Shown: positions 19,461-59,932 of the stretch, piece after piece
How the letters are laid out: the number at the start of each line of letters is the position of its first letter
How positions within the stretch are numbered: the first letter of the stretch is position 1
Virus record (IMG/VR): IMGVR_UViG_3300029610_000240
DNA: 64,000 nucleotides
Origin: a virus
Taxonomy: Duplodnaviria > Heunggongvirae > Uroviricota > Caudoviricetes
Strand: one strand, 5' to 3'
The notes under the pieces: generated by a model
Database searches by the model: none
Seen by the model: the letters and a program-made list of their open reading frames with translations, nothing else
Told to the model about the DNA's origin: nothing
Position numbers and translations under genes: made by a program

Positions 19461-19772
19461 ATGAAACAGTATATCGGAATAAAGGTTGTTGCTGCGAGAC
19501 CAATGACAAGAGGTGACTATAATATCTTTCGAGGATGGCAGATTCCGGCAGACGAAGATCCTGCCGATGAAGGATATGTGATGAAATACGAGAATGGACA
19601 TGTGCAATGGTTGCCAAAGGATATGTTTGAGTCTGACTATAAAGAATATGACGAGAGTACCCTGCCGGCAACAGCTATTGGTATGGTAAGTTCAGATTAC
19701 AAAGAATGTTTTCAGGCAGAGTACAAGCAGCTCAGAATTCGTTATGAAAAATTGAAGAGAATGCGTCAATAA
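19461..19772 (+). CDS. hypothetical protein (about 103 aa)
   Basis: RBS 'gaaaggagac' before ATG 19461. No motif recognised. Its 3' end abuts the IscB element left end. Confidence 0.45.
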   Translation: MKQYIGIKVVAARPMTRGDYNIFRGWQIPADEDPADEGYVMKYENGHVQWLPKDMFESDYKEYDESTLPATAIGMVSSDYKECFQAEYKQLRIRYEKLKRMRQ

Positions 19773-19799
19773 CCCCGACCTACAGTAATAACTGTTGAG

Positions 19800-20044
19800 G
19801 TCGGAGCTTGTAAAAGCTCATATTGACTAGCCTAAGTTCTTCGAGAACTACGTTGTTTATGTTATCACACCTGCGAATGATACCATAGTTTGCAGCCTTG
19901 TGTAGGCTCTGTAAAAGTTCTGTGAGGTAGGAACGGTCAACCTAGTATGTTCGATCACGACAAGCATTTACAACATTGGCGAAGGGTAACAAACTTTCAA
20001 AAGAAAGGGACAGCACTTGAGAGTAGCTGTCAAAGGTAAAAACT
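19800..20044 (+). ncRNA. Putative IscB omega-RNA scaffold (structured, about 240 nt, immediately 5' of iscB)
   Basis: No ORF. Multiple local stems, for example 'gagcttgtaaaagctc' and 'ctgtaaaagttctgtgagg...'. The position matches the known IscB omega-RNA location overlapping the left end. Confidence 0.55.
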
Positions 20045-21319
20045 ATGAGAGTATTTGTATTCAATATGCGTGGCAGACCATTAATGCCATGCTCACAAAG
20101 AAAAGCCAGATTACTCCTAAGGGAAAATAAGGCTATGATTTATAAATATCATCCATTTACGATTCAGCTGACTTATACAACTGGAGAAACAAAGCAGGAC
20201 TGTCATATAGGTATAGACACAGGTTCTAAATATATAGGAGCTGCTGTCAGATCAGAGGATAAGGTTTTTTGGAAAGGCGAAATCGAGCTTCGACAGGATA
20301 TCAGGTCAAATCTTGATACGAAACGTATTTATCGCAGAAGCAGACGAAATCGTAAAACAAGATACCGAAAACCAAGGTTTTTAAATCGTAAGAGAAGAGA
20401 TGAATGGCTTCCACCTAGCTTGCAAAGCAGGATAAATCATACGTTTCATTGGATTGACACATTGAGTAGTTTGGTTCCAAACCCCATTCTTCACATAGAA
20501 GTCGGTAAGTTTGATGTAGCAAAGATGATAAATCCTGAAATCCATGGAGTTGACTATCAACATGGTCAGACATATGGTTTCTTCGATGAAAGGTATTTTG
20601 TTTTTGCAAGAGATAACTACACTTGTCAGTGCTGTGGAAAGTCAAAAAATAAGATTTTGAACACACATCATATCATCTACCGCAGTAATGGCGGAACAAA
20701 CAGAGTTGATAATCTTATTACAGTTTGCACAGATTGTCATACATCGCAGAATCACAGGAAAGGTGGAATATTCTATCAATGGCAGGAGCAGCATAAAAAG
20801 GTAAAACAATACAAAGAACCGCCGTTCATGAATACCTTACGTAAGAGGATATTTGTAGCGTATCCAGATGCTGAGATCACATATGGATCTGAAACAACAC
20901 CAAAACGTAAGGCGATGAAATTGGATAAGACGCACTATAATGATGCGATTGTCATTAGTGGTATCAATGAAATTAAAGAAAATCCTGAAGAATGGTTACT
21001 GATAAAACAATTCCGCAAAAAGAAACGCTCTTTACACGAGGCTACCGCCCGTAAGGGAAGAAAAAAGCCAAACAGAAATCAGACGCGTAACAGTAAGAAT
21101 ACGCCTTATTATAAAGGATTTTATCTTAACGATAAGGTTTCAGTTTTTGGAAAGAGTGGATATATTACAGGATTTACGAGCAATGCGGCATATATAAAAG
21201 ATGAGAACAATGACTATATTACTCTGCCAAACAAAACCTATAAACAGGTCAGCATCAATAAAATGAAGTTGGAATGTCATAACAACAATTGGCAGTACAT
21301 AATAAAAAATGCTGTGTAA
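20045..21319 (+). CDS. iscB: IscB, an RNA-guided nuclease ancestral to Cas9 (PLMP domain, split RuvC, HNH)
   Basis: PLMP motif 'RGRPLMPCS'. RuvC-I 'IGIDTGSKYIGAAV'. HNH 'CQCCGKSKNKILNTHHIIYRSNGGTNRVDNLITVCTDCH'. Length 424 aa. Confidence 0.85.
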   Translation: MRVFVFNMRGRPLMPCSQRKARLLLRENKAMIYKYHPFTIQLTYTTGETKQDCHIGIDTGSKYIGAAVRSEDKVFWKGEIELRQDIRSNLDTKRIYRRSRRNRKTRYRKPRFLNRKRRDEWLPPSLQSRINHTFHWIDTLSSLVPNPILHIEVGKFDVAKMINPEIHGVDYQHGQTYGFFDERYFVFARDNYTCQCCGKSKNKILNTHHIIYRSNGGTNRVDNLITVCTDCHTSQNHRKGGIFYQWQEQHKKVKQYKEPPFMNTLRKRIFVAYPDAEITYGSETTPKRKAMKLDKTHYNDAIVISGINEIKENPEEWLLIKQFRKKKRSLHEATARKGRKKPNRNQTRNSKNTPYYKGFYLNDKVSVFGKSGYITGFTSNAAYIKDENNDYITLPNKTYKQVSINKMKLECHNNNWQYIIKNAV

Positions 21320-21386: not shown

Positions 21387-21878
21387 ATGAAAGAGAGGTT
21401 TTTTATGCAAAAAAGATATCAATACTGTATGTCAGGTATGTTTGCTGCGACAGATCAAAATTATTACGAAATTAACATCCCATCTCCGCATACATATGAG
21501 ACGGAAGAAGAAGCTATGGCAGATGGAGCTTTTGGATATCGTTTTGTTTTATTGCCTGGTGGTAAAGGACCACAAGTAGTTATATTTGAAGGATCTGGCT
21601 TTCGTCTGGTTTGTGATGGAAAAGAAAATTATATAAAAGACTGGGTTGAAGGAGATATTGTCGGAATATATGATTTCGATGAATTTACAAAAGCTGGTGG
21701 CTATATCCGCTTACTAAATCCAGAACTGGGAGACGATGTTTGTATTATTGAAGATTCAGACTTTTTGGACACAGATAAAACGTTTGCGGATATTTTCCCT
21801 AATATGGAACATCTAAAGCTGTATTATATCGATAATCTTGCATATTCCATTGATGAAATAACAGAAGGAGATAAATAA
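21387..21878 (+). CDS. hypothetical protein (163 aa)
   Basis: ORF only. Confidence 0.4.
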   Translation: MKERFFMQKRYQYCMSGMFAATDQNYYEINIPSPHTYETEEEAMADGAFGYRFVLLPGGKGPQVVIFEGSGFRLVCDGKENYIKDWVEGDIVGIYDFDEFTKAGGYIRLLNPELGDDVCIIEDSDFLDTDKTFADIFPNMEHLKLYYIDNLAYSIDEITEGDK

Positions 21879-22399
21879 TGGCAAAAACAGAAGAAACATT
21901 GATCATTGAAGATGTCTTATATCAAAACCTGTTTGGATCCAACCCATGCCTTGCAAGAGAGTATGGAACAAAGGAAGTTACCGTAACTCTTCTCAAGGAG
22001 AAAAAAGTAAAGGAAATCGTTGATTTTCTAAGCTATAACGCAAAAAAAGATGAATTTCGATGCTATGAGATTAAAGTCAGCATGGCCGATTTTAAGAGTA
22101 AGGCTGCCAAAACATGGATTGGAAATTATAATTATTTGGTTATTCCAAGAGAGTTATATTTAAAGCAATCCTTGTATGAATGGAAAGAACAGATTCCATA
22201 TTACGTGGGTATTATCGTTGTAAACGTAGAGCGTAGATCGAAATGGGTTGCTAAAAGACCTTCACCAATGGAAGTATCTGCAGGAATGAAGTTTATGTTA
22301 AGACAGAGTCTAATCAGAACTTTATTTTATCAAAATGATAAATTAAAAAAGAATAGTGCTGCTAAAATAGAGCAGATCTGTCAAGAGACAGAAAAGTAA
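21878..22399 (+). CDS. hypothetical protein, possible PD-(D/E)xK nuclease fold
   Basis: 'VDFLSYNAKKDEFRCYEIKVSMADFK' contains a D...E-I-K arrangement. Weak evidence. Confidence 0.35.
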   Translation: MAKTEETLIIEDVLYQNLFGSNPCLAREYGTKEVTVTLLKEKKVKEIVDFLSYNAKKDEFRCYEIKVSMADFKSKAAKTWIGNYNYLVIPRELYLKQSLYEWKEQIPYYVGIIVVNVERRSKWVAKRPSPMEVSAGMKFMLRQSLIRTLFYQNDKLKKNSAAKIEQICQETEK

Positions 22400-23449: not shown

Positions 23450-23600
23450 CCTCTCCCATCTATAGAGGTGGGAGCTTCCCTAACCTCGGCAGGTTTGGTT
23501 CTCGTTCGATAGCACCAATGTGCTAAGCTTAAGCGAGCTAACCCCGTGTGTCCCACGGTTGTATTATGTGAAATTGTGGTTATGCAGTTACTATCCGCAT
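23450..23600 (-). ncRNA. Putative TnpB omega-RNA (reRNA) region overlapping the tnpB 3' end and the right-end hairpin
   Basis: Structured, ORF-free segment immediately 3' of tnpB on the minus strand. Local palindromes 'gcttaagc' and 'ccgtgtgtcccacgg'. Placement follows the known TnpB reRNA organisation. Confidence 0.45.
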
Positions 23601-24698
23601 TCCCTCATTTCTGATATTGATCGCTGCATTTACATCTCTGTCGTGATGGATTCCACACTGCGGACAATCCCACTGCCTGAGTGCAAGATCCTTTGTTTTC
23701 GCATTCTTGTAACCACAGGCAGAACACATCTGACTGCTTGCAAAAAATCTGTCCACTTTCACAAGTTTTTTCCCTTGTTCCTCAAGTTTATACTTTAGAA
23801 AGGCTGTGAACATTCCCCATCCATTATCCGAAACGGATTTTCCCAATTTCAACGACCGAGACATTGCTTTCATATCCAGATCCTCTATACATACACAATC
23901 ATAGGCATTGGTTATCTGTCTTGACTGCTTATGCAGAAAATCTTTTCGCTGATTGGAAACTTTTTCGTGAAGTTTGGCTACCTTGATTCTCTGTTTCCTG
24001 CGATTGTTCGAACCTTTCTGCATCTTGGAAAGTCTGCGTTGTTCTCTTGCTAATCTTTTCTCTGCGTTCCGGTAATATCCTGGATATGCCGGTTCATTGC
24101 CATTACTGTCACGATATAATCCGTGCATGGAAAAGTCCAGACCTAAAAAACTGTGCATCTCCTTTTCTGGTATCTGATCTTCATACTCAAAAAGGATACT
24201 TGCATAGTATCTTCCGCCTGGTGTCTGGCTGATCGTCACTGATTTCAACCTGTATCCCTTTGGAACAGATCTGTGCTGCTTTAATCGGACTTGTCCGATC
24301 TTTGGCAGTTTCAGATACCCATCCGATATGGTGATGTTGCCATTGATACATATGGTTGAATAGCTGTTTTTATGATTCTTTTTTGATTTGAACCTTGGAA
24401 ATCCTGTTTTCGGCCGTTTGAAAAAGTTCTGAAATGCTGTATCAAGGTGTCGGAGTGATTGCTGTAAGGATATACTATCGACTTCCCGCAAAAATGCGTA
24501 TTCTTCCGTTTTCTTCATTTCAGCCATTTCTTTCGCACAGACAGTATATGTTATATTTGTCTTGTTCTTCTTATACTGCCTGATCCTTCGATTAAGCCAA
24601 TGGTTGTACACCATTCTGACACAGCCGAAAGTCCTGGCAAACAGAATCATCTGCTCATTATTGGGATATATTCTGAATTTATATGCTCTGTTTGCCAT
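23580..24698 (-). CDS. tnpB: TnpB RNA-guided endonuclease (IS605 OrfB), with intact RuvC and zinc finger
   Basis: 'AYKFRIYPNNEQMILFARTFGCVRMVYNHWL' is the canonical TnpB N-terminus. RuvC-I 'LGLDFSMHGL'. Zinc finger plus RuvC-III 'CSACGYKNAKTKDLALRQWDCPQCGIHHDRDVNAAINI'. Confidence 0.9.
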   Translation of the reverse strand: MANRAYKFRIYPNNEQMILFARTFGCVRMVYNHWLNRRIRQYKKNKTNITYTVCAKEMAEMKKTEEYAFLREVDSISLQQSLRHLDTAFQNFFKRPKTGFPRFKSKKNHKNSYSTICINGNITISDGYLKLPKIGQVRLKQHRSVPKGYRLKSVTISQTPGGRYYASILFEYEDQIPEKEMHSFLGLDFSMHGLYRDSNGNEPAYPGYYRNAEKRLAREQRRLSKMQKGSNNRRKQRIKVAKLHEKVSNQRKDFLHKQSRQITNAYDCVCIEDLDMKAMSRSLKLGKSVSDNGWGMFTAFLKYKLEEQGKKLVKVDRFFASSQMCSACGYKNAKTKDLALRQWDCPQCGIHHDRDVNAAINIRNEGMRIVTA

Positions 24699-25992: not shown

Positions 25993-26667
25993 ATGAAAGA
26001 GGTTTTGAAGAAAATGAAAATAAAATGTAGTAAAAAATTAAAGAAAACGCATTTGAGTGATGGTGCTTATAATTTGCTAATCGAAGCTATTGTACTATAC
26101 GGCTTATTAATCAATCTTATAACATGTGCATTTTTTGCGGATTATGTAGCTATGATTCCATTAAGAGCATTGGTGATTGGATACCTGCTCATTTCAATTA
26201 TTGGAATAGTAATGTTAACCAGATATAAGGCTGTCCTTGTAAAATTTGTTGGATATAACATGATTGTGATTCCATGTGGAATAACATTATCAACCATCAT
26301 CAGTGATTATGCTGGTAGATCTGATCTTGTATTGCAAGCATTGATCATTACAACTATGATCACTTTTTGTATGATTACTCTTAGTTGCATATTCCCAAAG
26401 TTTTTTGTAGGTATTGGGAAAATGCTTTTTGTAGCATTAGTAGGAGTTGTTATTGCATATGTCGTATGCTATTTTGTCGGATTAAATACAGGAATTATAG
26501 CATGGATTTCGGCAATTATTTTTTCCTTATATATTGGATACGATTTTGTTTCAGCACAGCAGGCTAAACATACAGTTGCAAACGCAATTATTTACGGGGC
26601 TGATATTTATTTGGATCTGGTCAATCTTTTTGTTGAGATTTTAAGAATTTTAAAAGATAACGATTAA
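25993..26667 (+). CDS. Multi-pass membrane protein, possibly of the Bax-inhibitor-1/YccA family
   Basis: About 7 predicted TM helices, about 220 aa, C-terminal 'IIYGADIYLDLVNLFVEILRIL'. Family assignment tentative. Confidence 0.45.
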   Translation: MKEVLKKMKIKCSKKLKKTHLSDGAYNLLIEAIVLYGLLINLITCAFFADYVAMIPLRALVIGYLLISIIGIVMLTRYKAVLVKFVGYNMIVIPCGITLSTIISDYAGRSDLVLQALIITTMITFCMITLSCIFPKFFVGIGKMLFVALVGVVIAYVVCYFVGLNTGIIAWISAIIFSLYIGYDFVSAQQAKHTVANAIIYGADIYLDLVNLFVEILRILKDND

Positions 26668-32467: not shown

Positions 32468-32904
32468 GGTACCACAATAAGAGGGAAATATGAAATAACA
32501 GGTGTTCTACTATGTAGAAAATATTATATTGTTTTAAATGAGAATGGGAAAGATCATACATTTGAGATTCCTAAAAGCCAATACAATTCAATAAAGCTGA
32601 ACAGTCGTGTATTGTGTAAGATAAATTATAAAGAAAATAAAATTACAAAAATTAAAATGATCGATAAATCAAGAATTTTATATAATCCTTTCGTTCAAAA
32701 ACTTAGATAACGTAACTATAAAGAGATTCATGATGATGACTTAATTGATGATTTAAGACAAAGTTTTAAAAATATGTAACAGATATATGTAAAAACAAAT
32801 GGCAGTTACATAATGCGTAAGAATAAGAATGTATCGAATAAGTCTATATAAGTAGAATCTACCAGGTGGTAGAAAATATTAAAACTAACAGGAGATAATA
32901 TTTC

Positions 32905-36133: not shown

Positions 36134-36279
36134 GTTTTGTAATCGTGTAAAAGCACTTAAATATGCTGTAGAAGATGTTTTGTTACTGTGCAACGGAAAT
36201 ATGTCTAAATGATTTAATTTATTACTACTTTTTATTCCTTTGTTTTGTAACCGTGTAACGGAGACATGTCTAAATGGTC
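36134..36279 (+). CRISPR. Mini CRISPR array U0: three 38-nt 'GTTTTGTAACCGTGTAACGGAGACATGTCTAAATGGTC'-type repeats (the first two degenerate) with one clear 27-nt spacer
   Basis: Repeats at 36134-36171, 36177-36214 and 36242-36279. Spacer 'taatttattactactttttattccttt' at 36215-36241. Confidence 0.6.
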
Positions 36280-36356
36280 AAATTATTTTGCACGGTGCGT
36301 AAAAATAAGAAATTATCGAATAGGCTCGTTAAAACGAGAGCTGCCGTGTGGCAGTA
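36280..36356 (+). ncRNA. tracrRNA-like module cognate to U0 (anti-repeat, 'AAAAATAAG' nexus, two hairpins)
   Basis: 'aaattattttgCACGGtgcgtaaaaataagaaattatcgaataggctcgttaaaacgagagctgccgtgtggcag'. CACGG pairs with the repeat's CCGTG. The nexus and hairpins are SpCas9-tracr-like. Confidence 0.6.
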
Positions 36357-36499
36357 AATCTAAGCTACATCAATTTCAAGATTATAATTTGGGAGGAGAA
36401 AATGTTTGGGAAAATTAATGTTTTTTATTTATTGTTGGCTATATATTTGTATTATTTGTTATATTCTTGCAGCCAAGAACAAGAAAGAAGGTGTAGTGT

Positions 36500-43252: not shown

Positions 43253-43600
43253 ATGTCAGGAATTAACATGGAGACAATCAAAACATTAGAAATGATCAAT
43301 ATGCTTGTACAAAAAGCAAAAAATGGAGTAAAGCCATTTTCAGAAGCCACATTAGAAAATATGGATAACTATATTTTTTATGATGAAAAAGCCGAAACTG
43401 AAAATGGATTCCCGATTGTACATGGCATGATGGTGGATGAAGATCATCATGATGTACTGTCAACATTAGACCAGTATATCAACAGTGACGATGAATATAC
43501 TGTCAGAGTAAGATTCGATGAAGACGATTACATGTACATCGAATTTCAGTTAGATGATGGCATCATTGAGATCGATGAAAATGGATGGTATGTTGCCTAA
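43253..43600 (+). CDS. Small, highly acidic protein (115 aa)
   Basis: RBS 'agaaaggacagaagtatg'. D/E-rich, for example 'MMVDEDHHDVLSTLDQYINSDDEYTVRVRFDEDDYMYIEFQLDDGIIEIDENGWYVA'. Confidence 0.5.
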   Translation: MSGINMETIKTLEMINMLVQKAKNGVKPFSEATLENMDNYIFYDEKAETENGFPIVHGMMVDEDHHDVLSTLDQYINSDDEYTVRVRFDEDDYMYIEFQLDDGIIEIDENGWYVA

Positions 43601-43802
43601 ATCTAAAAAAAGATAGTGTTTAATATTTTTAGACAGATTCATTGGATGTATAAGAAATGTAAATAATCATCCGTTATTATCCATATCATATACAAAATGT
43701 GTATTTTGTGTAAAATGTGTTAAAAACATAATTGCCACAAATGATGATATGTGATACAATTTCATGGTAACATATGAATTGCACTCTGATGCAACGTAGT
43801 AT

Positions 43803-43880
43803 GTGATAAAGTTATGCTCGCATGAGACGAGATCTGCCGGGTGGCAGAGGTAAAAAGGCCAGAGAATATCTGGTCTTTTT
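43803..43880 (+). ncRNA. Orphan tracrRNA-like module with no adjacent repeats, plus a terminator
   Basis: 'gtgataaagttatGCTCGcatgagaCGAGatCTGCCgggtGGCAG' has the same double-hairpin tail as the other tracr modules. The terminator 'aaaaaggccagagaatatctggtcttttt' follows. Confidence 0.45.
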
Positions 43881-44159
43881 ACTTAAAAATAGAGTATTAT
43901 TTATTAGCATTTTCTGATATAATATAAGCAGTGTTAGAGAGATATATGTAACACCATCGTTTATTAGAAAAGAATATACAGGGAAATTGCATCATTTTAT
44001 ACAATTTCTAAAGCGAGAGGTATTCATATATCTCTCGTTTTTTTTATGTGAAGAGTATTCGATTGAATGCTCTTTTTTCTTTGTAATAATCTAAACGATT
44101 TGTTACAGATCATCTCCTGGCATGAGTAACAAAAAGCTAATATGAAAGGAAGATGCTCT

Positions 44160-45038
44160 ATGATGAAAGAAAAAGGACAATTCAAGAAAAAGTTTGTACA
44201 GAAGATTGCTACAATTATGATGGCAGCAGCTATGGTTGTGAGTGGTGGATTTGGAGTTGCACCAGCAGCGGATCATTCAGTATCCGTATATGCAACAGAT
44301 AATGCATATCGTGGTTATCATGTAACTTCTACGAAGACGGAAAAGAAACCTGCGACCTCATCTACAAAGAAAAGCAAGTTGTCAAAAAATCATGCAAACA
44401 AAACAACAAAAACAGTAACAACTACGACAACTAGCACAGGTTACAAGCATGTTGTTGCAAAAGACACGAAAACTGTAACAAAGACTGTCGTAACTACAAC
44501 AAAGGTATATTACAAAAAGACCTTAACAACAACTGTAAAAAAACAGGTAACTGTAACGACAACAACGATCAATTATCTGAGAAGCGGTAATCCAGATTAT
44601 ATGAAATTAATGGGAACAGTAAATACTCAGATTCCTACAAAGGTGGGGAATGCAATGAAAGCAGATGGATTAAAAGTAGTCCTGAATCCTAATTTATCTT
44701 ATGATGGAGTATATTCTGCTTCCAGAAATTCCATTGAAATGAAAAATAATGTAGATTATGGTTTTATGCATGAAATTGGACACTATGTGGATCGTAAGAC
44801 AGGATATGTTTCAGGCAGTACAGAATTTAAAAATATCTTTAATTCTGAAAAATCCAAATACAAAGGATTTTATTCTGACTGGAATTTAGATAGTGGAAAT
44901 TATGCAAGAACAAGCACTTCTGATTATTTTGCAGAATGTTTTAGAGATTACTACTTTAGTGCAAACTCCAGAAGCAAGTTAAAAGCAAATTGTCCTAAAT
45001 CTTATAGTTTTATTCAGAAAACAATCAATAAGTTCTAA
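44160..45038 (+). CDS. Secreted HExxH zinc metallopeptidase-like protein, paralog of 45132..45959
   Basis: Signal/TM 'IATIMMAAAMVVSGGFGVAPAA'. 'FMHEIGHYVDRKTG...STEF'. Conserved C-terminus 'NCPKSYSFIQK'. Confidence 0.5.
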   Translation: MMKEKGQFKKKFVQKIATIMMAAAMVVSGGFGVAPAADHSVSVYATDNAYRGYHVTSTKTEKKPATSSTKKSKLSKNHANKTTKTVTTTTTSTGYKHVVAKDTKTVTKTVVTTTKVYYKKTLTTTVKKQVTVTTTTINYLRSGNPDYMKLMGTVNTQIPTKVGNAMKADGLKVVLNPNLSYDGVYSASRNSIEMKNNVDYGFMHEIGHYVDRKTGYVSGSTEFKNIFNSEKSKYKGFYSDWNLDSGNYARTSTSDYFAECFRDYYFSANSRSKLKANCPKSYSFIQKTINKF

Positions 45039-45959: not shown

Positions 45960-46126
45960 AATATTGTAATTTTGTAATAAATATATATTAATGTGGGGGC
46001 ATTACATAAATAATGAAATAAAAAGGCGTATTATATTGAAAAAAGTATCAAAAAGTGTTAGCATATTACATATAGACAAGAGAATTCAGAAAAACAAAAT
46101 GTGTATTTTATAAGGAGGATACTTAC

Positions 46127-49100
46127 GTGCAGAATGGATTTTTAGGAATAACTGTTAGTAGTGAACAGGTTGGTTGGGCAGTTACAAATCCCAAATATGA
46201 GTTAGAACGTGCATCTCGAAAAGATTTATGGGGTGTAAGGCTTTTTGATAAAGCAGAAACAGCGGAAGATCGAAGAATGTTCCGTACAAACAGACGATTA
46301 AATCAGAGAAAAAAGAACAGAATACATTATCTTAGAGATATTTTCCATGAGGAAGTAAATCAAAAAGATCCTAACTTTTTTCAGCAATTAGATGAAAGCA
46401 ATTTCTGTGAAGATGATCGTACTGTAGAGTTTAATTTTGATACTAATCTTTATAAGAATCAGTTTCCAACAGTGTATCATTTAAGAAAATATCTAATGGA
46501 AACAAAAGATAAACCAGATATTCGTCTGGTATACTTAGCTTTTTCAAAATTTATGAAAAATCGAGGACATTTCTTATACAAAGGAAATCTTGGAGAGGTT
46601 ATGGACTTTGAAAATTCCATGAAAGGCTTTTGTGAAAGTTTAGAGAAATTTAATATTGACTTCCCTACATTATCAGATGAACAGGTAAAAGAAGTCCGAG
46701 ATATCTTATGTGATCATAAAATTGCTAAAACTGTGAAAAAGAAAAACATCATTACTATTACAAAAGTAAAAAGTAAGACAGCAAAAGCATGGATTGGACT
46801 GTTTTGTGGTTGCAGCGTTCCTGTTAAAGTATTATTTCAGGATATCGATGAAGAAATTGTAACGGATCCAGAAAAAATCTCATTTGAAGATGCTTCTTAT
46901 GATGATTGTATTGCAAATATTGAAAAGGGTGTCGGTATTTATTATGAAGCTATTGTTTCTGCAAAGATGCTTTTTGACTGGTCTATCCTGAATGAAATTT
47001 TAGGTGACCATCAGTTATTAAGTGATGCAATGATCGCAGAATACAATAAGCATCATGATGATTTAAAGCGTTTACAGAAGATCATTAAAGGAACTGGCAG
47101 TAGAGAATTATATCAGGATATCTTTATTAATGATGTTTCTGGAAATTATGTATGCTACGTTGGTCATGCAAAAACAATGAGTAGTGCAGATCAGAAACAG
47201 TTTTATACATTTTTAAAAAATCGATTAAAAAATGTGAATGGTATTTCATCAGAAGATGCAGAATGGATTGATACAGAGATTAAAAACGGTACTTTACTAC
47301 CAAAACAGACAAAACGTGATAACAGTGTTATTCCGCATCAATTACAGTTAAGGGAATTTGAATTAATTCTTGATAACATGCAGGAAATGTATCCATTCTT
47401 AAAAGAAAACAGAGAAAAATTATTAAAAATCTTCAATTTCGTTATTCCTTATTATGTAGGTCCGCTAAAGGGCGTTGTAAGAAAAGGAGAGAGTACAAAC
47501 TGGATGGTGCCTAAAAAAGATGGTGTGATTCATCCATGGAATTTCGATGAAATGGTAGACAAAGAAGCGTCTGCGGAATGTTTTATTTCCCGAATGACAG
47601 GAAATTGTAGTTATTTATTTAATGAAAAAGTTCTTCCAAAGAATTCTCTTCTTTATGAGACATTTGAGGTATTAAATGAGCTAAATCCATTAAAGATCAA
47701 TGGAGAACCTATCAGCGTGGAATTAAAACAGAGAATTTATGAACAGCTTTTCTTGACAGGGAAAAAAGTTACAAAAAAATCTCTGACAAAATATCTTATC
47801 AAGAATGGCTATGACAAAGATATTGAATTATCAGGTATTGATAATGAATTTCACAGCAATCTAAAATCTCATATTGATTTTGAGGATTACGATAATCTAT
47901 CTGATGAAGAAGTTGAACAGATTATTCTTAGAATTACAGTATTTGAAGATAAGCAGCTGTTAAAAGATTATTTAAATCGCGAGTTTGTAAAGCTCTCTGA
48001 GGATGAGAGAAAACAGATTTGCTCATTATCTTATAAAGGATGGGGAAACTTATCAGAAATGCTATTAAACGGTATTACTGTAACAGATTCCAATGGTGTA
48101 GAAGTTTCTGTAATGGATATGCTGTGGAATACAAACTTAAATCTGATGCAGATCTTAAGTAAGAAATATGGATATAAAGCAGAAATCGAACATTACAATA
48201 AAGAACATGAAAAAACCATTTATAATCGTGAAGATTTGATGGATTATTTAAATATTCCACCGGCTCAGCGTAGGAAGGTAAATCAGCTGATTACGATAGT
48301 AAAATCTCTCAAAAAGACATATGGAGTTCCAAATAAGATTTTCTTCAAAATAAGCAGAGAACATCAGGATGATCCAAAGAGAACTTCATCCAGAAAAGAA
48401 CAGCTAAAATATTTATACAAATCCTTAAAATCAGAAGATGAAAAACATCTTATGAAAGAGCTTGATGAATTGAACGATCATGAATTATCCAATGATAAAG
48501 TTTATCTTTATTTTCTACAGAAAGGACGCTGCATTTATTCTGGCAAGAAATTAAATCTTTCAAGATTAAGAAAATCTAATTATCAGAATGATATTGACTA
48601 CATTTATCCATTATCTGCAGTAAATGATCGTTCTATGAATAATAAGGTATTAACGGGAATCCAGGAGAATCGAGCAGACAAGTATACCTATTTTCCAGTT
48701 GATTCAGAAATTCAGAAAAAAATGAAGGGATTTTGGATGGAACTGGTTCTGCAGGGATTTATGACAAAGGAGAAATACTTCCGATTATCCAGAGAAAATG
48801 ATTTTTCAAAGAGCGAACTTGTTAGCTTTATTGAACGTGAAATTTCAGATAATCAGCAAAGTGGAAGAATGATTGCTTCTGTATTACAGTATTATTTCCC
48901 TGAATCAAAGATTGTATTTGTAAAAGAAAAGCTGATTTCTTCCTTTAAGAGGGATTTCCATTTAATTAGTAGTTATGGTCACAATCATTTACAAGCTGCA
49001 AAAGATGCTTATATTACGATTGTAGTTGGAAATGTATATCATACAAAATTTACAATGGACCCAGCAATCTATTTTAAGAATCATAAGAGAAAAGATTATG

Positions 49101-50065
49101 ATCTGAACCGATTATTCTTAGAAAATATCAGCAGAGATGGACAGATTGCATGGGAAAGTGGTCCATATGGGTCAATTCAGACGGTTCGAAAAGAATATGC
49201 TCAAAACCATATTGCTGTTACAAAAAGAGTCGTGGAAGTAAAAGGCGGCTTATTTAAGCAGATGCCATTAAAAAAAGGACATGGCGAATATCCATTAAAA
49301 ACCAATGATCCTAGATTTGGCAATATCGCACAGTATGGAGGGTATACGAATGTCACAGGTTCCTATTTTGTATTAGTAGAATCAATGGAGAAAGGGAAAA
49401 AACGTATTTCTTTAGAATATGTTCCAGTATATCTTCATGAGCGTTTAGAGGATGATCCTGGACATAAACTGTTAAAAGAATATCTGGTTGATCACAGAAA
49501 ACTTAATCATCCAAAGATTTTACTTGCAAAAGTAAGAAAAAACTCATTACTTAAGATTGACGGTTTTTATTATCGTTTAAATGGTCGAAGTGGAAATGCT
49601 CTTATCCTTACAAATGCAGTGGAATTGATCATGGATGACTGGCAGACAAAAACAGCAAACAAGATTTCTGGATACATGAAACGCAGAGCTATTGATAAGA
49701 AAGCAAGGGTTTATCAAAATGAATTCCATATTCAGGAATTAGAACAGCTTTATGATTTTTATTTAGATAAATTAGAGAATGGTGTTTATAAAAATCGTAA
49801 GAATAATCAGGCTGAATTAATTCACAACGAAAAAGAACAGTTTATGGAACTCAAGACAGAAGATCAGTGTGTATTATTGACTGAGATTAAAAAGCTTTTT
49901 GTATGTTCTCCAATGCAGGCAGACCTTACATTGATTGGTGGCAGCAAACACACAGGAATGATTGCTATGTCAAGCAATGTTACAAAAGCAGATTTTGCAG
50001 TCATTGCGGAAGATCCTTTAGGACTTAGAAACAAAGTAATTTATTCTCATAAAGGTGAGAAGTAA
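46127..50065 (+). CDS. cas9: Type II Cas9 homolog (1312 aa) with substituted catalytic residues in RuvC-I (Asp to Thr), RuvC-II (Glu to Lys) and HNH (His to Tyr); predicted nuclease-dead
   Basis: N-terminal 'FLGITVSSEQVGWAV' (compare 'IGLDIGTNSVGWAV'), 'TVYHLRKYL', 'DIRLVYLAFSKFMKNRGHFL'. RuvC-II 'KIFFKISREHQ' (compare 'NIVIEMARENQ'). HNH 'NDIDYIYPLSAVNDRSMNNKVL' (compare '[21 protein letters not shown]'). RuvC-III region 'SYGHNHLQAAKDAYI'. RBS 'aaggagg' before GTG 46127. Confidence 0.9.
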   Translation: MQNGFLGITVSSEQVGWAVTNPKYELERASRKDLWGVRLFDKAETAEDRRMFRTNRRLNQRKKNRIHYLRDIFHEEVNQKDPNFFQQLDESNFCEDDRTVEFNFDTNLYKNQFPTVYHLRKYLMETKDKPDIRLVYLAFSKFMKNRGHFLYKGNLGEVMDFENSMKGFCESLEKFNIDFPTLSDEQVKEVRDILCDHKIAKTVKKKNIITITKVKSKTAKAWIGLFCGCSVPVKVLFQDIDEEIVTDPEKISFEDASYDDCIANIEKGVGIYYEAIVSAKMLFDWSILNEILGDHQLLSDAMIAEYNKHHDDLKRLQKIIKGTGSRELYQDIFINDVSGNYVCYVGHAKTMSSADQKQFYTFLKNRLKNVNGISSEDAEWIDTEIKNGTLLPKQTKRDNSVIPHQLQLREFELILDNMQEMYPFLKENREKLLKIFNFVIPYYVGPLKGVVRKGESTNWMVPKKDGVIHPWNFDEMVDKEASAECFISRMTGNCSYLFNEKVLPKNSLLYETFEVLNELNPLKINGEPISVELKQRIYEQLFLTGKKVTKKSLTKYLIKNGYDKDIELSGIDNEFHSNLKSHIDFEDYDNLSDEEVEQIILRITVFEDKQLLKDYLNREFVKLSEDERKQICSLSYKGWGNLSEMLLNGITVTDSNGVEVSVMDMLWNTNLNLMQILSKKYGYKAEIEHYNKEHEKTIYNREDLMDYLNIPPAQRRKVNQLITIVKSLKKTYGVPNKIFFKISREHQDDPKRTSSRKEQLKYLYKSLKSEDEKHLMKELDELNDHELSNDKVYLYFLQKGRCIYSGKKLNLSRLRKSNYQNDIDYIYPLSAVNDRSMNNKVLTGIQENRADKYTYFPVDSEIQKKMKGFWMELVLQGFMTKEKYFRLSRENDFSKSELVSFIEREISDNQQSGRMIASVLQYYFPESKIVFVKEKLISSFKRDFHLISSYGHNHLQAAKDAYITIVVGNVYHTKFTMDPAIYFKNHKRKDYDLNRLFLENISRDGQIAWESGPYGSIQTVRKEYAQNHIAVTKRVVEVKGGLFKQMPLKKGHGEYPLKTNDPRFGNIAQYGGYTNVTGSYFVLVESMEKGKKRISLEYVPVYLHERLEDDPGHKLLKEYLVDHRKLNHPKILLAKVRKNSLLKIDGFYYRLNGRSGNALILTNAVELIMDDWQTKTANKISGYMKRRAIDKKARVYQNEFHIQELEQLYDFYLDKLENGVYKNRKNNQAELIHNEKEQFMELKTEDQCVLLTEIKKLFVCSPMQADLTLIGGSKHTGMIAMSSNVTKADFAVIAEDPLGLRNKVIYSHKGEK

Positions 50066-50106: not shown

Positions 50107-50259
50107 GCTTTGGAACTGCGTAGAACATGATATGTCTTATGGCTAAAAGAATTACAGGTGCATATTTTGAACTGTGTAAAACATGGCATATGGGAGAATT
50201 GGCAACGACTGGAACAGAACACAGTTTTGAAACTGTATAAAACATGACATGTCTTATGG
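50107..50259 (+). CRISPR. Mini CRISPR array U1: 3 repeats (consensus GTTTTGAAACTGTATAAAACATGACATGTCTTATGG) and 2 spacers (22 and 29 nt), immediately 3' of cas9
   Basis: Repeats at 50107-50142, 50165-50194 (degenerate) and 50224-50259. Spacers 'ctaaaagaattacaggtgcata' and 'agaattggcaacgactggaacagaacaca'. Confidence 0.7.
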
Positions 50260-50385
50260 TTCAAATTATTTATACAGTACGTGAAAATAAGAAATTATCG
50301 AATAAACTCGTTTAGACGAGAACTGCTAGAGGCAGTAATTGCAGAAAATGTCATGAACCCCAAGCGACTTCGTCGGCCGGGGGTT
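50260..50385 (+). ncRNA. tracrRNA-like module cognate to U1, plus a terminator
   Basis: 'ttcaaattatTTATACAGTacgtgaaaataagaaattatcgaataaactcgtttagacgagaactgctagaggcag'. TATACAGT is an exact complement of the repeat's ACTGTATA. Terminator 'ccccaagcgacttcgtcggccgggggttt'. Confidence 0.7.
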
Positions 50386-50958: not shown

Positions 50959-51117
50959 GTTATTTTGAGAAATGATTGCAAATGTGATCGTAGCGTACCT
51001 TACTTCACAGCTTAGTTTTGGAACTATGTAAAATCAAATGATTGCAAATGGGCAGAGAGAAAATTTGAAAAATTGTCTGTGTTTTGGAACTATGTAAAAT
51101 CAAATGATTGCAAATGG
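50959..51117 (+). CRISPR. Mini CRISPR array U2: degenerate repeat plus 2 perfect 37-nt repeats 'GTTTTGGAACTATGTAAAATCAAATGATTGCAAATGG', with 2 spacers (28 and 29 nt)
   Basis: Repeats at 50959-50986 (3' half only), 51015-51051 and 51081-51117. Spacers 'atcgtagcgtaccttacttcacagctta' and 'gcagagagaaaatttgaaaaattgtctgt'. Confidence 0.75.
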
Positions 51118-51191
51118 TCAAAGTAATTGCATGGCGTGTAAAAATAAGAATTTATCGAAATAATTTGCTCCGGCGAAATCTGCAAGATGCA
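51118..51191 (+). ncRNA. tracrRNA-like module cognate to U2
   Basis: 'tcaaagtaattgCATGGcgtgtaaaaataagaatttatcgaaataatttgctccggcgaaatCTGCAagaTGCAG'. Confidence 0.65.
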
Positions 51192-51285
51192 GAAATCAAG
51201 CTGATCGATGCTTTACATATTTATCTATTTCAATATTTCTTCAACCATATACATTGATCAGCTTTAATAAAAAGAATTAAAATTA

Positions 51286-51446
51286 CGAAAATAAAATTGA
51301 ATGATTCCAATGGATAGTCGAAAAAGAATTGGATAGTCGACGGGTTTTAGAATAGTGTAAAATTGAATGATTCTAAGGGTTAGATACTCCACTAGATAGC
51401 AAAGTACTTGTTTTAGAATAGTGTAAAATTAAATGATTCTAAGGGG
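51286..51446 (+). CRISPR. Mini CRISPR array U3: degenerate repeat plus 2 repeats 'GTTTTAGAATAGTGTAAAATTGAATGATTCTAAGGG(G)', with 2 spacers (30-31 nt)
   Basis: Repeats at 51286-51313 (3' half), 51344-51379 and 51410-51446. Spacers 'atagtcgaaaaagaattggatagtcgacgg' and 'ttagatactccactagatagcaaagtactt'. Confidence 0.75.
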
Positions 51447-51527
51447 TCAAATAGATTCTATACAATGCGTGAAAATAAGAAACTTATCGAACAAACCTGT
51501 GTAGGAAACAGGAACTGCCGAGGGCAG
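51447..51527 (+). ncRNA. tracrRNA-like module cognate to U3
   Basis: 'tcaaatagATTCTAtacaatgcgtgaaaataagaaacttatcgaacaaaCCTGTgtaggaaACAGGaaCTGCCgagGGCAG'. ATTCTA pairs with the repeat's TAGAAT. Confidence 0.65.
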
Positions 51528-51575
51528 TAAAAATAAAAAGCATATTTTTATTATGTTTTATTTTATGATGAAGAG

Positions 51576-53789: not shown

Positions 53790-53965
53790 TGGATTTGAAT
53801 CCATGTAAAAATGTAAAGCAAATGATTCCAAATGGCAATCTTCTCGAATTGTCGTGTAGGCAAAGTTTTGAAACCATGTAAAAAAATGATTCCAAATGGG
53901 TATGCATTGGTGTTTGAAGCGTTTGTGTGTTTTGGAACCATGTAAAAGCAAATGATTCCAAATGG
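53790..53965 (+). CRISPR. Mini CRISPR array U4: 3 repeats (consensus GTTTTGGAACCATGTAAAAGCAAATGATTCCAAATGG; first degenerate) and 2 spacers of 29 nt
   Basis: Repeats at about 53790-53835, 53865-53899 and 53929-53965. Spacers 'caatcttctcgaattgtcgtgtaggcaaa' and 'gtatgcattggtgtttgaagcgtttgtgt'. Confidence 0.75.
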
Positions 53966-54043
53966 TTAAAAGCAGATTACATGGTGTGTCAAAATAAGAA
54001 CTTATCGAATAGATCTATATAAATGGAATCTGCCAGGTGGCAG
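53966..54043 (+). ncRNA. tracrRNA-like module cognate to U4
   Basis: 'ttaaaagcagattaCATGGtgtgtcaaaataagaacttatcgaatagatctatataaatggaatCTGCCaggtGGCAG'. CATGG pairs with the repeat's CCATG. Confidence 0.65.
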
Positions 54044-54051
54044 AAAAAAAC

Positions 54052-55537: not shown

Positions 55538-55594
55538 AGTTTAGTTTCAGAAGTTTATAAAAACAGATAACTATTAATGATTATCTGTTTCATG
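55538..55594 (+). repeat. Single extended CRISPR-like repeat of module U5 (related to the U6 repeat, carrying an internal palindrome AACAGATAA/TTATCTGTT)
   Basis: 'gtttagtttcagaagtttataaaaacagataactattaatgattatctgtttcatgg' against the U6 repeat 'gctttagaagtctataaaacagaatcattgtcaatgg'. Confidence 0.45.
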
Positions 55595-55658
55595 GATTGT
55601 GTAAAAATAAGCAAATTAGCGAATATGCTCGTTGAAACGAGAGCTGTTAGATAACAGC
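55595..55658 (+). ncRNA. tracrRNA-like module U5; the second hairpin is a variant (GCTGTTAGATAACAGC)
   Basis: 'attgtgtaaaaataagcaaattagcgaatatGCTCGttgaaaCGAGaGCTGTtagatAACAGC'. Confidence 0.5.
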
Positions 55659-55710
55659 TAAAAATGTAACTATATAAATTAATTTGTAAATTATAGGGAG
55701 GACTATTTTA

Positions 55711-55875: not shown

Positions 55876-56091
55876 ATGATGGATATTTACACAAGATTAT
55901 TGATGATGGATATTATGATATCGGCAGTAGCTATTATGGTAAATATCTTAGAAAATTGTCCGATTAACGGTAAAATACACAATATTTCAAGAATTTTAAT
56001 CATATCTAGTATTGCTGCAGACATTATCTTACTTTTAGGAATTGTCAATACGTTCATCTCATACAGTATCCTGTATTCTTATTTTAAATAA
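55876..56091 (+). CDS. Small membrane protein (71 aa, 2 TM)
   Basis: Hydrophobic ORF. Confidence 0.35.
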   Translation: MMDIYTRLLMMDIMISAVAIMVNILENCPINGKIHNISRILIISSIAADIILLLGIVNTFISYSILYSYFK

Positions 56092-56250
56092 GATACAGAA
56101 GAATCATTGTCGATGTTAAACATATTATGTGAAACATTATTGTCAGGCTTTAGAAGTCTATAAAACAGAATCATTGTCAATGAGATCAAATTCTTTATGA
56201 CAACGCAATACAGCTTTAGAAGTCTATAAAACAGAATCATTGTCAATGGT
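56091..56250 (+). CRISPR. Mini CRISPR array U6: degenerate repeat plus 2 repeats 'GCTTTAGAAGTCTATAAAACAGAATCATTGTCAATGG', with 2 spacers of 30 nt
   Basis: Repeats at 56091-56116 (3' half), 56147-56183 and 56214-56250. Spacers 'ttaaacatattatgtgaaacattattgtca' and 'agatcaaattctttatgacaacgcaataca'. Confidence 0.75.
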
Positions 56251-56325
56251 CAAATAAGCAGACTGCGTAAAAATAAGAATTTTATCGATATTGCTCGTGT
56301 AGTCGAGAACTGCCAAGTGGCAGCA
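56251..56325 (+). ncRNA. tracrRNA-like module cognate to U6
   Basis: 'tcaaataagcAGACTgcgtaaaaataagaattttatcgatattGCTCGtgtagtCGAGaaCTGCCaagtGGCAG'. AGACT pairs with the repeat's AGTCT. Confidence 0.65.
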
Positions 56326-56352
56326 ACATTTATAATAAAAAGGAGGAATTAT

Positions 56353-57006
56353 ATGCGAAAACAAGTTTTTGCAACGATTGGTTGTGCTATCTTTTTACTG
56401 ATCGTAGTAGGTTTCCTGATGATGGCATATTCTTCTTATACAAAACATCAAGAGGAAATTGCTGAACAAAAATTAATAAAGCAGGAAAGAAAAGAATCAC
56501 GAAAAACACTTCAATCATCAGAAGAAAGGGAATGGAATCTGGACTGCCTGTGGGAGCATGTTATCGAAATTGATGGTACAGAAATTGAAGTACCAATTAA
56601 ATACAATGATCTGATCAAGACACTTGGAAACAAAGTGAAAGAAGCTAAAGATAAAAAAATCATGCTACAAAATGGACAGGTTTTATGGCTGAATTGTACA
56701 AAAGATGAAAAAGACTCTATGAATAATGGAAAAGATAAAGCAATGGTTTATGGTATATCTACACAACAGGACGCTAAAGATTCTTGTGTTACAATTCAGA
56801 AAATCAAAACTGGAATGTCTTATGATAAATTAAAGGAATATTATGAGACTCCAGTTACGAAAGATGATTCCCAAAGTATTTCTGTACTGCAATATGCTGA
56901 TCCGAAATCTGATTTAGATATCACACAGCAGAATGTGACTGTTTATCTGGATAACAATACAGTGGTTGGATTAGGTATATATTATGACGGAAGTAAGGAG
57001 GAATAG
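56353..57006 (+). CDS. Membrane-anchored extracytoplasmic protein (N-terminal TM)
   Basis: RBS 'aaaaggaggaattatatg'. Anchor 'ATIGCAIFLLIVVGFLMMAY'. Confidence 0.5.
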   Translation: MRKQVFATIGCAIFLLIVVGFLMMAYSSYTKHQEEIAEQKLIKQERKESRKTLQSSEEREWNLDCLWEHVIEIDGTEIEVPIKYNDLIKTLGNKVKEAKDKKIMLQNGQVLWLNCTKDEKDSMNNGKDKAMVYGISTQQDAKDSCVTIQKIKTGMSYDKLKEYYETPVTKDDSQSISVLQYADPKSDLDITQQNVTVYLDNNTVVGLGIYYDGSKEE

Positions 57007-57769: not shown

Positions 57770-59011
57770 TTATTTTATTTTCATGATCTCGGCCATTAGC
57801 CACTCTGGTTTTCGTTTTGTGTAAGTAGCTTCTGTGATATCGTTGATCTTGTGACCCATCATATATTTTAATGCATATTCATCTACTTTATCTCTTTTTG
57901 CCATCGTGGAAAACTGAATCCTTGGATCATGAGCTCTGTGATCTGGATTGAGCTCTAATTTCTTAACAATCTTTTCGAATCGATGTCTATATTTATCATA
58001 CGTCATTTTTAAGCTACTTCGGTGTGTTTTTGTATCAGTGCAGTTGATTAAATAATCACTTCCAAGATTTATTGCTTCCTGGTATCGATGCTTGACTAGA
58101 TCACGAATCCGTGGATGGATTGGAACCAAGCGATCTTTACCTGCGTCAGTCTTCATACCGCCGATAAAAAACCAATTTTCCAGATCTACATTTTTTAATT
58201 CAATTAGACCCAATTCTTGTGGTCGCCATCCAGAGTAGCATTGGATCAGAATCACATCCACATAATCAGTATCATACAAATGATCCCATAATTTTTTTAT
58301 TTCTTCATCCGTAAAATCAATATGGTCCTTCTTCGCTTCTTTAACATCTTTAATAACATCATCAGACAAATTAAAGGTCCTTGCATAATTCTTGTCTACT
58401 AATTCATACTCTAGCGCATAATCCAACATTAAGTTGAATAGAGATTTTATCTTTGTCTTTGTAGTAGGAGATGCGTGTTTTTCTTTACCATCGACTACAT
58501 ACGTTCCATCTTCCATACAACCTTTAATATGTCGGGCACGTAAATCTTTTGCACGCATATCATAAACAGCAGAGCAGTAGTTCCAGGCAGATTTAATTGT
58601 ACGTTCACTTGAAGGACTTGACAGGGATTCAAAATATTTATCAGTCCACTTTTCGTATAATTGCTCGACTGTCAGATCAGAGTCAAGATCATACGGATTT
58701 TTATGATATTCAAGTAATGCAGCGTAAGCATCATTATAGGTTTTGAAATATGTTTCTGGTTTCAATGATTTATAAATAGGTTTTCCATAAAAATTTTTTC
58801 CAACACAGACTAATGCACGAAAAGGCTTTCTAAGATTTTGATTTTTTAATTCGGATATAGTGCCAAATCCATTTGGAAGACGTTTTCGTTTATTAGTTTT
58901 TCTTTGTTGTTGTTTAATAACTTTTGTATCTAGAGGATAACCGCAGTGAGGACAAGTTATTGCCTTATCACTTACCTGCAATTGACATTCTGGACATTTG
59001 ATCAGTGCCAT
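57770..59011 (-). CDS. int: Tyrosine recombinase/integrase with an N-terminal zinc-ribbon
   Basis: C-terminal catalytic region 'RAHDPRIQFSTMAKRDKVDEYALKYMMGHKINDITEATYTKR' (R...HxxR...Y). N-terminal 'CPECQLQVSDKAITCPHCG'. Confidence 0.85.
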   Translation of the reverse strand: MALIKCPECQLQVSDKAITCPHCGYPLDTKVIKQQQRKTNKRKRLPNGFGTISELKNQNLRKPFRALVCVGKNFYGKPIYKSLKPETYFKTYNDAYAALLEYHKNPYDLDSDLTVEQLYEKWTDKYFESLSSPSSERTIKSAWNYCSAVYDMRAKDLRARHIKGCMEDGTYVVDGKEKHASPTTKTKIKSLFNLMLDYALEYELVDKNYARTFNLSDDVIKDVKEAKKDHIDFTDEEIKKLWDHLYDTDYVDVILIQCYSGWRPQELGLIELKNVDLENWFFIGGMKTDAGKDRLVPIHPRIRDLVKHRYQEAINLGSDYLINCTDTKTHRSSLKMTYDKYRHRFEKIVKKLELNPDHRAHDPRIQFSTMAKRDKVDEYALKYMMGHKINDITEATYTKRKPEWLMAEIMKIK

Positions 59012-59864: not shown

Positions 59865-59932
59865 TTCTCCTTCTTTATTTTAATAATAAAAACGACAATT
59901 CGAGATTATATCCCATTAAGTCATTTAGATAA

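Follow-up and report, generated by a model that had tools for sequence, protein, structure and literature searches.

Introduction

In dissections of SpCas9 guide RNAs, binding to Cas9 depends chiefly on the repeat:anti-repeat duplex and on the nexus, with a smaller contribution from the 3' hairpins. In the canonical type II-A relatives of the system described here (L065 and L066), which have cas1-cas2-csn2, long arrays and a Cas9 with 42% identity to the one in our locus, cas9 is immediately preceded, in the same orientation, by the tracrRNA gene, which consists, in order, of its own promoter, an anti-repeat, a nexus, two hairpins and a separate terminator. A short-guide repressor, tracr-L, has a 5' guide of ~11-14 nt that matches the cas9 promoter, according to Workman 2021 as cited in Feussner et al. 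2026 (10.64898/2026.06.01.729453). Viral single-guide RNAs (vsgRNAs) are documented to sequester Cas9 without any targeting (Feussner et al. 2026, 10.64898/2026.06.01.729453), and compact sgRNAs of mobile elements act mainly by sequestering Cas9 (10.64898/2026.06.01.729453). The scaRNA of Francisella, finally, is a mimic of a guide with its repeat and base-pairs with tracrRNA (10.64898/2026.06.01.729453).

Here we describe an orphan RNA gene located 2.2 kb upstream of the gene for a nuclease-dead Cas9 (dCas9) in a 64,000-nt stretch of DNA, referred to herein as the window. The parts of this gene and its presumed protein partner are as follows:

43732-43760, + strand: sigma-70-type promoter, TTGCCA-17 nt-TGaTACAAT, with an extended -10
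43766-43815, + strand: lineage-specific 5' segment (50 nt), a hairpin at 43770-43804 and then GAUAAAGUUAU
43803-43880, + strand: segment defining the orphan RNA locus, with hairpins and terminator at 43816-43880; its sequence reads as the first-pass annotation of the window had quoted it
43816-43831, + strand: tail hairpin 1 (hp1), GCUCG-CAUGAGA-CGAG, homologous to the first hairpin of the RAGATH-30/tracr modules
between hp1 and hp2, + strand: AU linker
43833-43848, + strand: tail hairpin 2 (hp2), U-CUGCC-GGGU-GGCAG-A (CUGCC-GGGU-GGCAG at 43834-43847), with homology to the second tracr-module hairpin and separated from the terminator stem by AGGUAAAAA
43852-43880, + strand: intrinsic terminator, A5-GGCCAGA-GAAUAU-CUGGUC-U5 (stem to U5, 43857-43880)
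46127-50065, + strand: nuclease-dead Cas9 (1312 aa) with Pfam Cas9_REC, Cas9_PI, bridge helix and HNH_4, the presumed protein partner

Like the canonical tracrRNAs of L065 and L066, the orphan lies upstream of a cas9 homologue on the same strand and has its own promoter, two 3' hairpins and an intrinsic terminator. It differs from them in having no anti-repeat to any repeat of the element and a degenerate nexus, and in that its presumed Cas9 partner is nuclease-dead, while working tracr copies follow each array instead. Because the anti-repeat is missing, the orphan, judged from its sequence, is not a working tracrRNA. With tracr-L and the vsgRNAs it shares the form of a compact, stand-alone RNA that has a tracr tail and terminator and is encoded on a mobile element. 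In the window lineage it also has a predicted intramolecular stem where the repeat:anti-repeat duplex would be, but this stem is no better than shuffled sequence and is absent from the orphans of the related loci L009 and L012. Unlike these RNAs, however, it has neither an 11-14-nt guide nor a match to the cas9 promoter, and it is encoded beside the element's own dead Cas9 and not against a host nuclease. Since there is no guide and the stem is not conserved, the orphan as predicted is neither a tracr-L nor a vsgRNA; the closest mode of action, which we propose for it, is the sequestering mode of the vsgRNAs.

The first-pass annotation had likened the orphan to scaRNA, and both are small RNAs of a type II locus for which a role in turning Cas9 towards gene regulation has been proposed. 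As scaRNA is crRNA-like and pairs with tracrRNA, the analogy does not fit an RNA that resembles the tracr tail, the opposite half, and in which no repeat-like or anti-repeat segment was found. The orphan is best described as a putative tracrRNA derivative without an anti-repeat.

The host element and its RAGATH-30 modules

The window covers the cargo region of a mobile element, of the integrative kind, from Gram-positive gut bacteria. This cargo includes an LPXTG adhesin, a restriction-modification system, IscB with a HEARO RNA, TnpB and an integrase. Close relatives of the element are classed as viral contigs in IMG/VR, and in other relatives a Tn916-type Xis and integrase form the end. The right end is a mosaic: homology to one relative, L048, stops at window position 57002, where L048 carries the Tn916-type Xis and integrase (L048 20290-21934); beyond this point the window has a different integrase, a zinc-ribbon tyrosine integrase (57770-59011, - strand). 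The HEARO (omega) RNA lies at 19765-19994 and the IscB gene at 20045-21319, and the TnpB (IS605 OrfB) gene is on the opposite strand (23580-24698, - strand). With IscB, TnpB and dCas9, three different RNA-guided protein families are found in one 64-kb window.

What the first-pass annotation had called tracr modules are eight full matches to the Rfam family RAGATH-30 (RF03055), with scores of 64.7-78.6 bits:

32763-32875: RAGATH-30 array-tracr module 1
36134-36357: RAGATH-30 array-tracr module 2
50108-50338: RAGATH-30 array-tracr module 3
51015-51195: RAGATH-30 array-tracr module 4
51278-51530: RAGATH-30 array-tracr module 5
53801-54046: RAGATH-30 array-tracr module 6
55539-55660: RAGATH-30 array-tracr module 7
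56080-56326: RAGATH-30 array-tracr module 8

In six of the eight, two or three 36-nt repeats come before the module; the other two have a single repeat there. The stretch immediately upstream of each RAGATH-30 match is an anti-repeat cognate to the module's own repeat, and by predicted pairing the last repeat of each module can fold onto it in the manner of a natural single-guide RNA. All eight modules are located in 5'UTRs, directly upstream of ribosome-binding sites, and have no terminator. When the tail hairpins of 16 modules were compared, they covaried strongly: 95.9% of cells were paired and 10 of 11 pairs had compensatory changes, and none of 500 shuffles was as good. RAGATH-30 appears to be a tracr tail, which would assign a function to an orphan Rfam family. 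Within an incomplete coverage of the literature, we found nothing on RAGATH-30 as a tracrRNA or on a natural dCas9 on mobile elements.

The orphan carries the tail of the tracr modules

The first-pass annotation had proposed that the orphan reproduces the double-hairpin tail of these modules, followed by a strong terminator. In Rfam, the orphan matched RAGATH-30 only at model positions 27-57 (43817-43848; 19.1 bits), below the gathering score of 59.5 bits, which applies to the full 59-nt model. As this match is not significant alone, a covariance model, R1, was trained on the hp1 and hp2 tails of 16 array-linked modules, a set that did not include the orphan. In an unfiltered search of both strands of the entire window, R1 matched 43814-43849 with 31.4 bits (E=1.5e-4), more than the score of one of its own training members. 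The best non-member in the window, at 22356-22393 (+ strand), reached 17.6 bits (E=0.12); it apparently lies within an ORF (21878-22399) and is probably a chance match. The orphan also shares 21 nt at 90% identity with the module at 36299, and its tail resembles the modules of its own element, while the tracrRNAs of the nearest canonical relatives were not matched. The resemblance of the orphan to the tracr modules is beyond chance, and together with the fold described below (z=-4.4) it bears out the proposed tail and terminator. For hp1, the support consists of the partial Rfam match, the R1 match and a stem that is invariant in L009 and L012 while the loop length varies.

Since the Rfam match is restricted to model positions 27-57, the half of RAGATH-30 that holds the nexus and anti-repeat (positions 1-26, unmatched) is missing or degenerate in the orphan, in agreement with the shortened nexus noted in the first pass. 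The nexus region of the orphans contains only short AU-rich mini-hairpins that are different in each lineage. A search for direct repeats and repeat-like sequence in 43500-43900 found none, and the absence of CRISPR repeats upstream was thus likewise upheld. Compared with RAGATH-30, the orphan has the same architecture of hp1 plus hp2 and much of the sequence, but not the invariant GUAAAAAUAAGAAuUUAUCGAA part. A promoter and a terminator of its own also set it apart from the modules, which sit in 5'UTRs and have no terminator. We consider it very likely that the orphan is a tracrRNA-derived RNA, the descendant of an ancestral tracrRNA gene minus its anti-repeat.

Tail-only copies are also found elsewhere. 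Units of hp1-hp2 alone occur in the 5'UTR of the peptidase-C1 gene in L012 (1013-1049) and L009 (196-232) and are absent at that place in the window, and in L007 a truncated tracr follows the DUF6906 gene (8034-8091; hp1-hp2 unit, 8057-8091). Such extra copies suggest either that modules often decay by deletion or that the two-hairpin unit has a role of its own. Were the latter the case, hp1-hp2 could be a self-standing structured module that does not depend on Cas9, for example the binding site of another protein of the element or a stabiliser, used in 5'UTRs as well as in the orphan small RNA. The recurrence of units without nexus or anti-repeat in gene 5'UTRs in these three loci is consistent with such a module, as is the position of every window module directly upstream of a ribosome-binding site with no terminator. 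Against it, the hairpins clearly form the tail of tracr modules, which have cognate anti-repeats, no candidate for an alternative protein was identified, and copies without an anti-repeat are explicable as deletion remnants. We therefore regard a Cas9-independent role as improbable.

A predicted transcription unit conserved across lineages

The promoter of the orphan is the top-ranking + strand promoter-like site in 43550-44200 (10/12, TG present), and transcription is predicted to start at a G at ~43766-43767, giving an RNA of ~115 nt in the window and ~92-100 nt in two other lineages. The 117-nt RNA 43766-43882 has a folding energy of -40.6 kcal/mol (z=-4.4; 0/200 shuffles equally good), and its fold consists of hp1, hp2 and the terminator plus a 5' hairpin. 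Equivalent promoters with 17-nt spacing and TGn were found at the same place in L009 (2499-2527) and L012 (3194-3222), with only 59-60% identity between lineages over the 29-nt promoter block. The terminator stem covaries across lineages (GGCCAGA, GAGACUG and GGGACUG), with a matching 3' half each time. The orphan is thus predicted to form a transcription unit of its own, a small RNA gene complete with promoter and terminator.

The gene order around the orphan is conserved: a peptidase-C1/lectin gene, the orphan, a second leader, one or more ATLF metalloprotease genes and dCas9. The orphan is at the same syntenic site in L007-L011, L059 and L063, whose dCas9 is 74% identical, and in L012 and L013 (73%), and R1 recovered it in all of these loci with 30-36.8 bits. 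A metagenome scan for orthologues gave 15 human-gut contigs, representing only four lineages, and a scan of viral contigs gave two; contigs of the P0002 lineage stop 289 nt upstream of dCas9. A pattern scan of genome contigs for diverged orthologues returned only chance matches in high-GC genomes, and a search of annotated phage and plasmid records had no match.

By hand count, the window and L009 agree at 24 of the 26 positions in the stems and hp2. In both L009 and L012, hp2 reads CUGCC-GAGU-GGCGG, in which the lone stem change converts U-A to U-G and leaves the pairing intact; the module L012c has the same hp2. No compensatory changes were found in hp1 or hp2 among the orphans themselves, which comprise only about four lineages. 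Identity around the orphan is 33-60% in the flanking non-coding blocks and 66-82% in coding genes, and variation in hp1 and hp2 is lower among the orphans than in the tails of the array-linked modules that lie immediately downstream of dCas9. A decayed pseudo-copy with broken stems in orthologous loci had been named in the first pass as an outcome that would count against a regulator. As promoter, hp1, hp2 and terminator are all kept where dCas9 is 73-74% identical, the orthologues are not of this kind. This conservation suggests that the RNA probably still has some function.

Part of the conservation is trivially explained, since the terminator is also needed by the upstream operon. In L012, the orphan terminator is the sole + strand terminator that the scan reports downstream of the peptidase gene, and in L009 the scan reports the orphan terminator stem on the - strand only and lists nothing else as a + strand terminator ahead of the leader. 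The window terminator, too, is reported on the - strand, and the symmetry of the stem makes it potentially bidirectional. These terminator data are among the points for a reading of the orphan as a near-vestigial relic, the ancestral tracrRNA gene made superfluous by the array-linked tracr copies. What is left of it would be kept mainly for a terminator that closes the peptidase operon and shields the attenuator leader and ATLF gene beyond, its RNA having no function in trans. The dispensability of other tail-only remnants, such as the peptidase 5'UTR copy that the window does not have, points the same way. A terminator role, however, leaves unexplained why the promoter has been retained in all lineages with its 17-nt spacing and extended -10 despite ~40% divergence of the block, and why hp1 and hp2 are near-invariant and have changed less than the array-linked tails just downstream of dCas9. 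On balance a relic is rather unlikely; it ranks just behind, and is almost as likely as, our low-confidence best guess of a guide-less ligand or competitor of dCas9, which is set out below.

The 5' segment and the predicted loss of crRNA pairing

In the window, the 5' hairpin at 43770-43804 (ACAUAU-gaa-UUGCA-cucuga-UGCAA-cgua-GUAUGU) has a 6-bp lower stem, an internal loop and a 5-bp upper stem. Its shape resembles a miniature repeat:anti-repeat stem, and the downstream GAUAAAGUUAU a shortened, nexus-like remnant. The hairpin alone is nevertheless no better than shuffled sequence, and we rejected it as a significant sgRNA-like stem (z=-0.49); one metagenomic variant disrupts it. The 5' part of L009, L059 and L012 is only ~22 nt long (GUAAAUUUUGAUACACAAUCAG and similar) and has no 5' hairpin. 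It is colinear with the start of RAGATH-30, with a scrambled nexus and without an anti-repeat.

Anti-repeat function was evaluated with RNAduplex by pairing the 5' segment with the repeats of its own locus. The energies of -5.1 kcal/mol in L009 and -3.1 kcal/mol in L012 were no better than those of shuffles, and in the window the best result was marginal (6/200 shuffles as good). For comparison, the anti-repeat and repeat of a module of the L009 lineage pair with -20 kcal/mol, and cognate pairs of the window with -5.9 to -16.2 kcal/mol. A stand-alone CRISPR repeat, of the solitary repeat unit type of RNA anti-CRISPRs, was not found in the orphan. The independent decay of anti-repeat and nexus across lineages and the lack of significance of the 5' hairpin are both in keeping with the relic reading, as is the failure to find a target for the 5' segment, described next.

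The first-pass annotation had taken 43741-43802 as a guide with partial complementarity to its targets. The first 20 nt of this stretch, however, are promoter, and the remainder, like the 5' segment, is 33-39% identical between lineages. A blastn-short search of the 64-kb window with the 5' segment or 43741-43802 gave only chance matches of 8-12 nt, and pairing of the 5' segment with the adjacent leader and with the dCas9 5'UTR in three lineages was no better than that of shuffles. The guide model, in which the 5' segment directs dCas9 to endogenous targets as in scaRNA or tracr-L, draws on the adjoining dead Cas9 and on the fact that tracr-L and scaRNAs do repress genes with short guides. Apart from the absence of conservation and of any above-chance match, whether within the window or to the promoter and 5'UTR of dCas9, it is at odds with a predicted start that leaves at most 4 nt 5' of the stem, with the absence of repeat-like or anti-repeat pairing, and with the orphans of L009 and L012, which have no duplex to position a guide. 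We judge this model highly unlikely. What stands of the original interpretation is a tracrRNA-derived, repeat-less RNA beside a dead Cas9; the scaRNA analogy and the proposed guide do not.

When the 28 distinct spacers of all loci were compared with the orphan, its promoter and the elements, none matched outside the arrays. Two window spacers gave partial similarities that are AT-rich, mismatched at the PAM-proximal end and probably due to chance: spacer 36213, with 22/24 nt at 26019-26042 (- strand), and spacer 53837, with 14 exact nt at 59892-59905 (- strand). A 16-nt sequence, ACAAAATGTGTATTTT, occurs at 43693-43708, upstream of the orphan promoter, and at 46095-46110, just upstream of the dCas9 ribosome-binding site; it was rejected as a shared operator, as it is not conserved upstream of dCas9 in other lineages. 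TGTG-rich repeats precede the orphan in L009 and L012.

A nuclease-dead Cas9 as the presumed partner

The first-pass annotation had placed the orphan next to a dead Cas9. In an alignment of the window Cas9 with SpCas9 and five canonical homologues, the window protein has the substitutions D10T, E762K, H840Y and H983A and retains the bridge-helix arginines, which corroborates that placement; the nearest canonical Cas9s have ~42% identity. The RuvC substitutions (D10T, E762K and H983A/S/Y) are present in all six aligned members of the clade (P0001, P0002, P0008 and P0019-P0021). H840Y is found in most of the clade, and H840 is retained in P0020. Proteins of the P0003-P0018 sublineage are ~1155 aa long; in its aligned member P0008 the entire HNH is deleted, and the others have no Pfam HNH_4 match. 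Together, P0001-P0021 form a small clade of naturally nuclease-dead Cas9. The related loci L007 and L012 have arrays with 5-6 spacers, and no cas1, cas2 or csn2 was seen there.

As the orphan tail is of the element's own type and unlike that of the nearest canonical systems, dCas9 and not a host Cas9 is the likely partner, and the retained bridge-helix arginines are a further point for dCas9. The same evidence bears on a possible anti-CRISPR decoy, a guide-less RNA like a viral sgRNA that would sequester the active Cas9 of the host when the element enters a new cell. The Cas9-sequestering compact sgRNAs of mobile elements (10.64898/2026.06.01.729453) provide a precedent for it, and the window lineage has a short stem resembling a repeat:anti-repeat duplex. 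This stem, however, is not significant and is missing in L009 and L012, the tail fits the modules that the element itself carries and does not match tracrRNAs from the nearest canonical systems, and no Acr genes were identified adjoining the orphan. A decoy directed against the host is accordingly quite improbable.

Probable origin and possible function

Because the tracrRNA of the canonical relatives has the same position, orientation and 3' architecture, the orphan most likely descends from an ancestral type II-A tracrRNA gene upstream of cas9. We propose that the Cas9 of this mobile-element family became nuclease-dead and that each mini CRISPR array gained its own downstream tracr copy, the present RAGATH-30 modules. 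The original tracrRNA gene would then have been redundant for crRNA pairing and could have lost its anti-repeat and most of its nexus, while retaining its promoter, the two Cas9-type tail hairpins and the terminator. If the orphan RNA is made and its tail hairpins still bind dCas9, it would be a guide-less ligand, unable to pair with a crRNA or to carry a guide. By competing with crRNA:tracr modules it might set the amount of dCas9 available for RNA-guided repression; alternatively, it might hold apo-dCas9. Transcription of the upstream peptidase operon would end at its terminator, too.

Selection kept the promoter, tail and terminator and not the parts that pair with crRNA, which suggests contact with dCas9 without guiding. 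The degeneration of the nexus, different in each lineage, disfavours a canonical Cas9 scaffold and weakens the assumption of binding, and the tail-only copies elsewhere (L007, and the peptidase 5'UTR in L009 and L012), apparent deletion remnants, also count against the model. A descendant of the tracrRNA gene that acts as a guide-less ligand of dCas9 is our best overall explanation, held tentatively and at somewhat less than even chances. The predicted mechanism by itself, that of a decoy or regulator acting as guide-less ligand or competitor of dCas9, is possible, and we put it forward with low confidence. The most specific version is unlikely: a dedicated guide-less scaffold with a separately regulated promoter that tunes the element's own natural CRISPRi, its tail occupying dCas9 so that repression by at least 8 array-tracr modules is released or buffered. 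Such a tuning scaffold, if real, would mean that one element encodes both a Cas9 and an RNA that antagonises it or serves as its rheostat, an arrangement of which we found no description in the literature.

Should the orphan be functional, a tracrRNA can be retained for its protein-binding tail alone, and the orphan would be the first regulatory handle on a naturally nuclease-dead Cas9 system of human-gut mobile elements. If it is a mere relic, its value is as evolutionary evidence. The orphan marks the site of the ancestral tracrRNA gene and so helps to reconstruct how an immune type II-A locus became a multi-module dCas9 system. The surrounding system of dCas9 and RAGATH-30 modules is more remarkable than the orphan itself.

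A second conserved unit downstream of the orphan

A second conserved unit lies between the orphan and the ATLF gene (43895-44075). It has an extended -10 promoter, TGATATAAT, at ~43914-43922, a leader of ~115 nt and tandem terminators at 44010-44041 and 44050-44075. In Rfam, the leader has only a sub-threshold match to L20_leader. Pairing is possible between its AGAGAGAUAUAUG and the 3' arm of the first terminator, which would give an antiterminator/terminator alternative, and three predicted pairs in the leader have compensatory changes between lineages.
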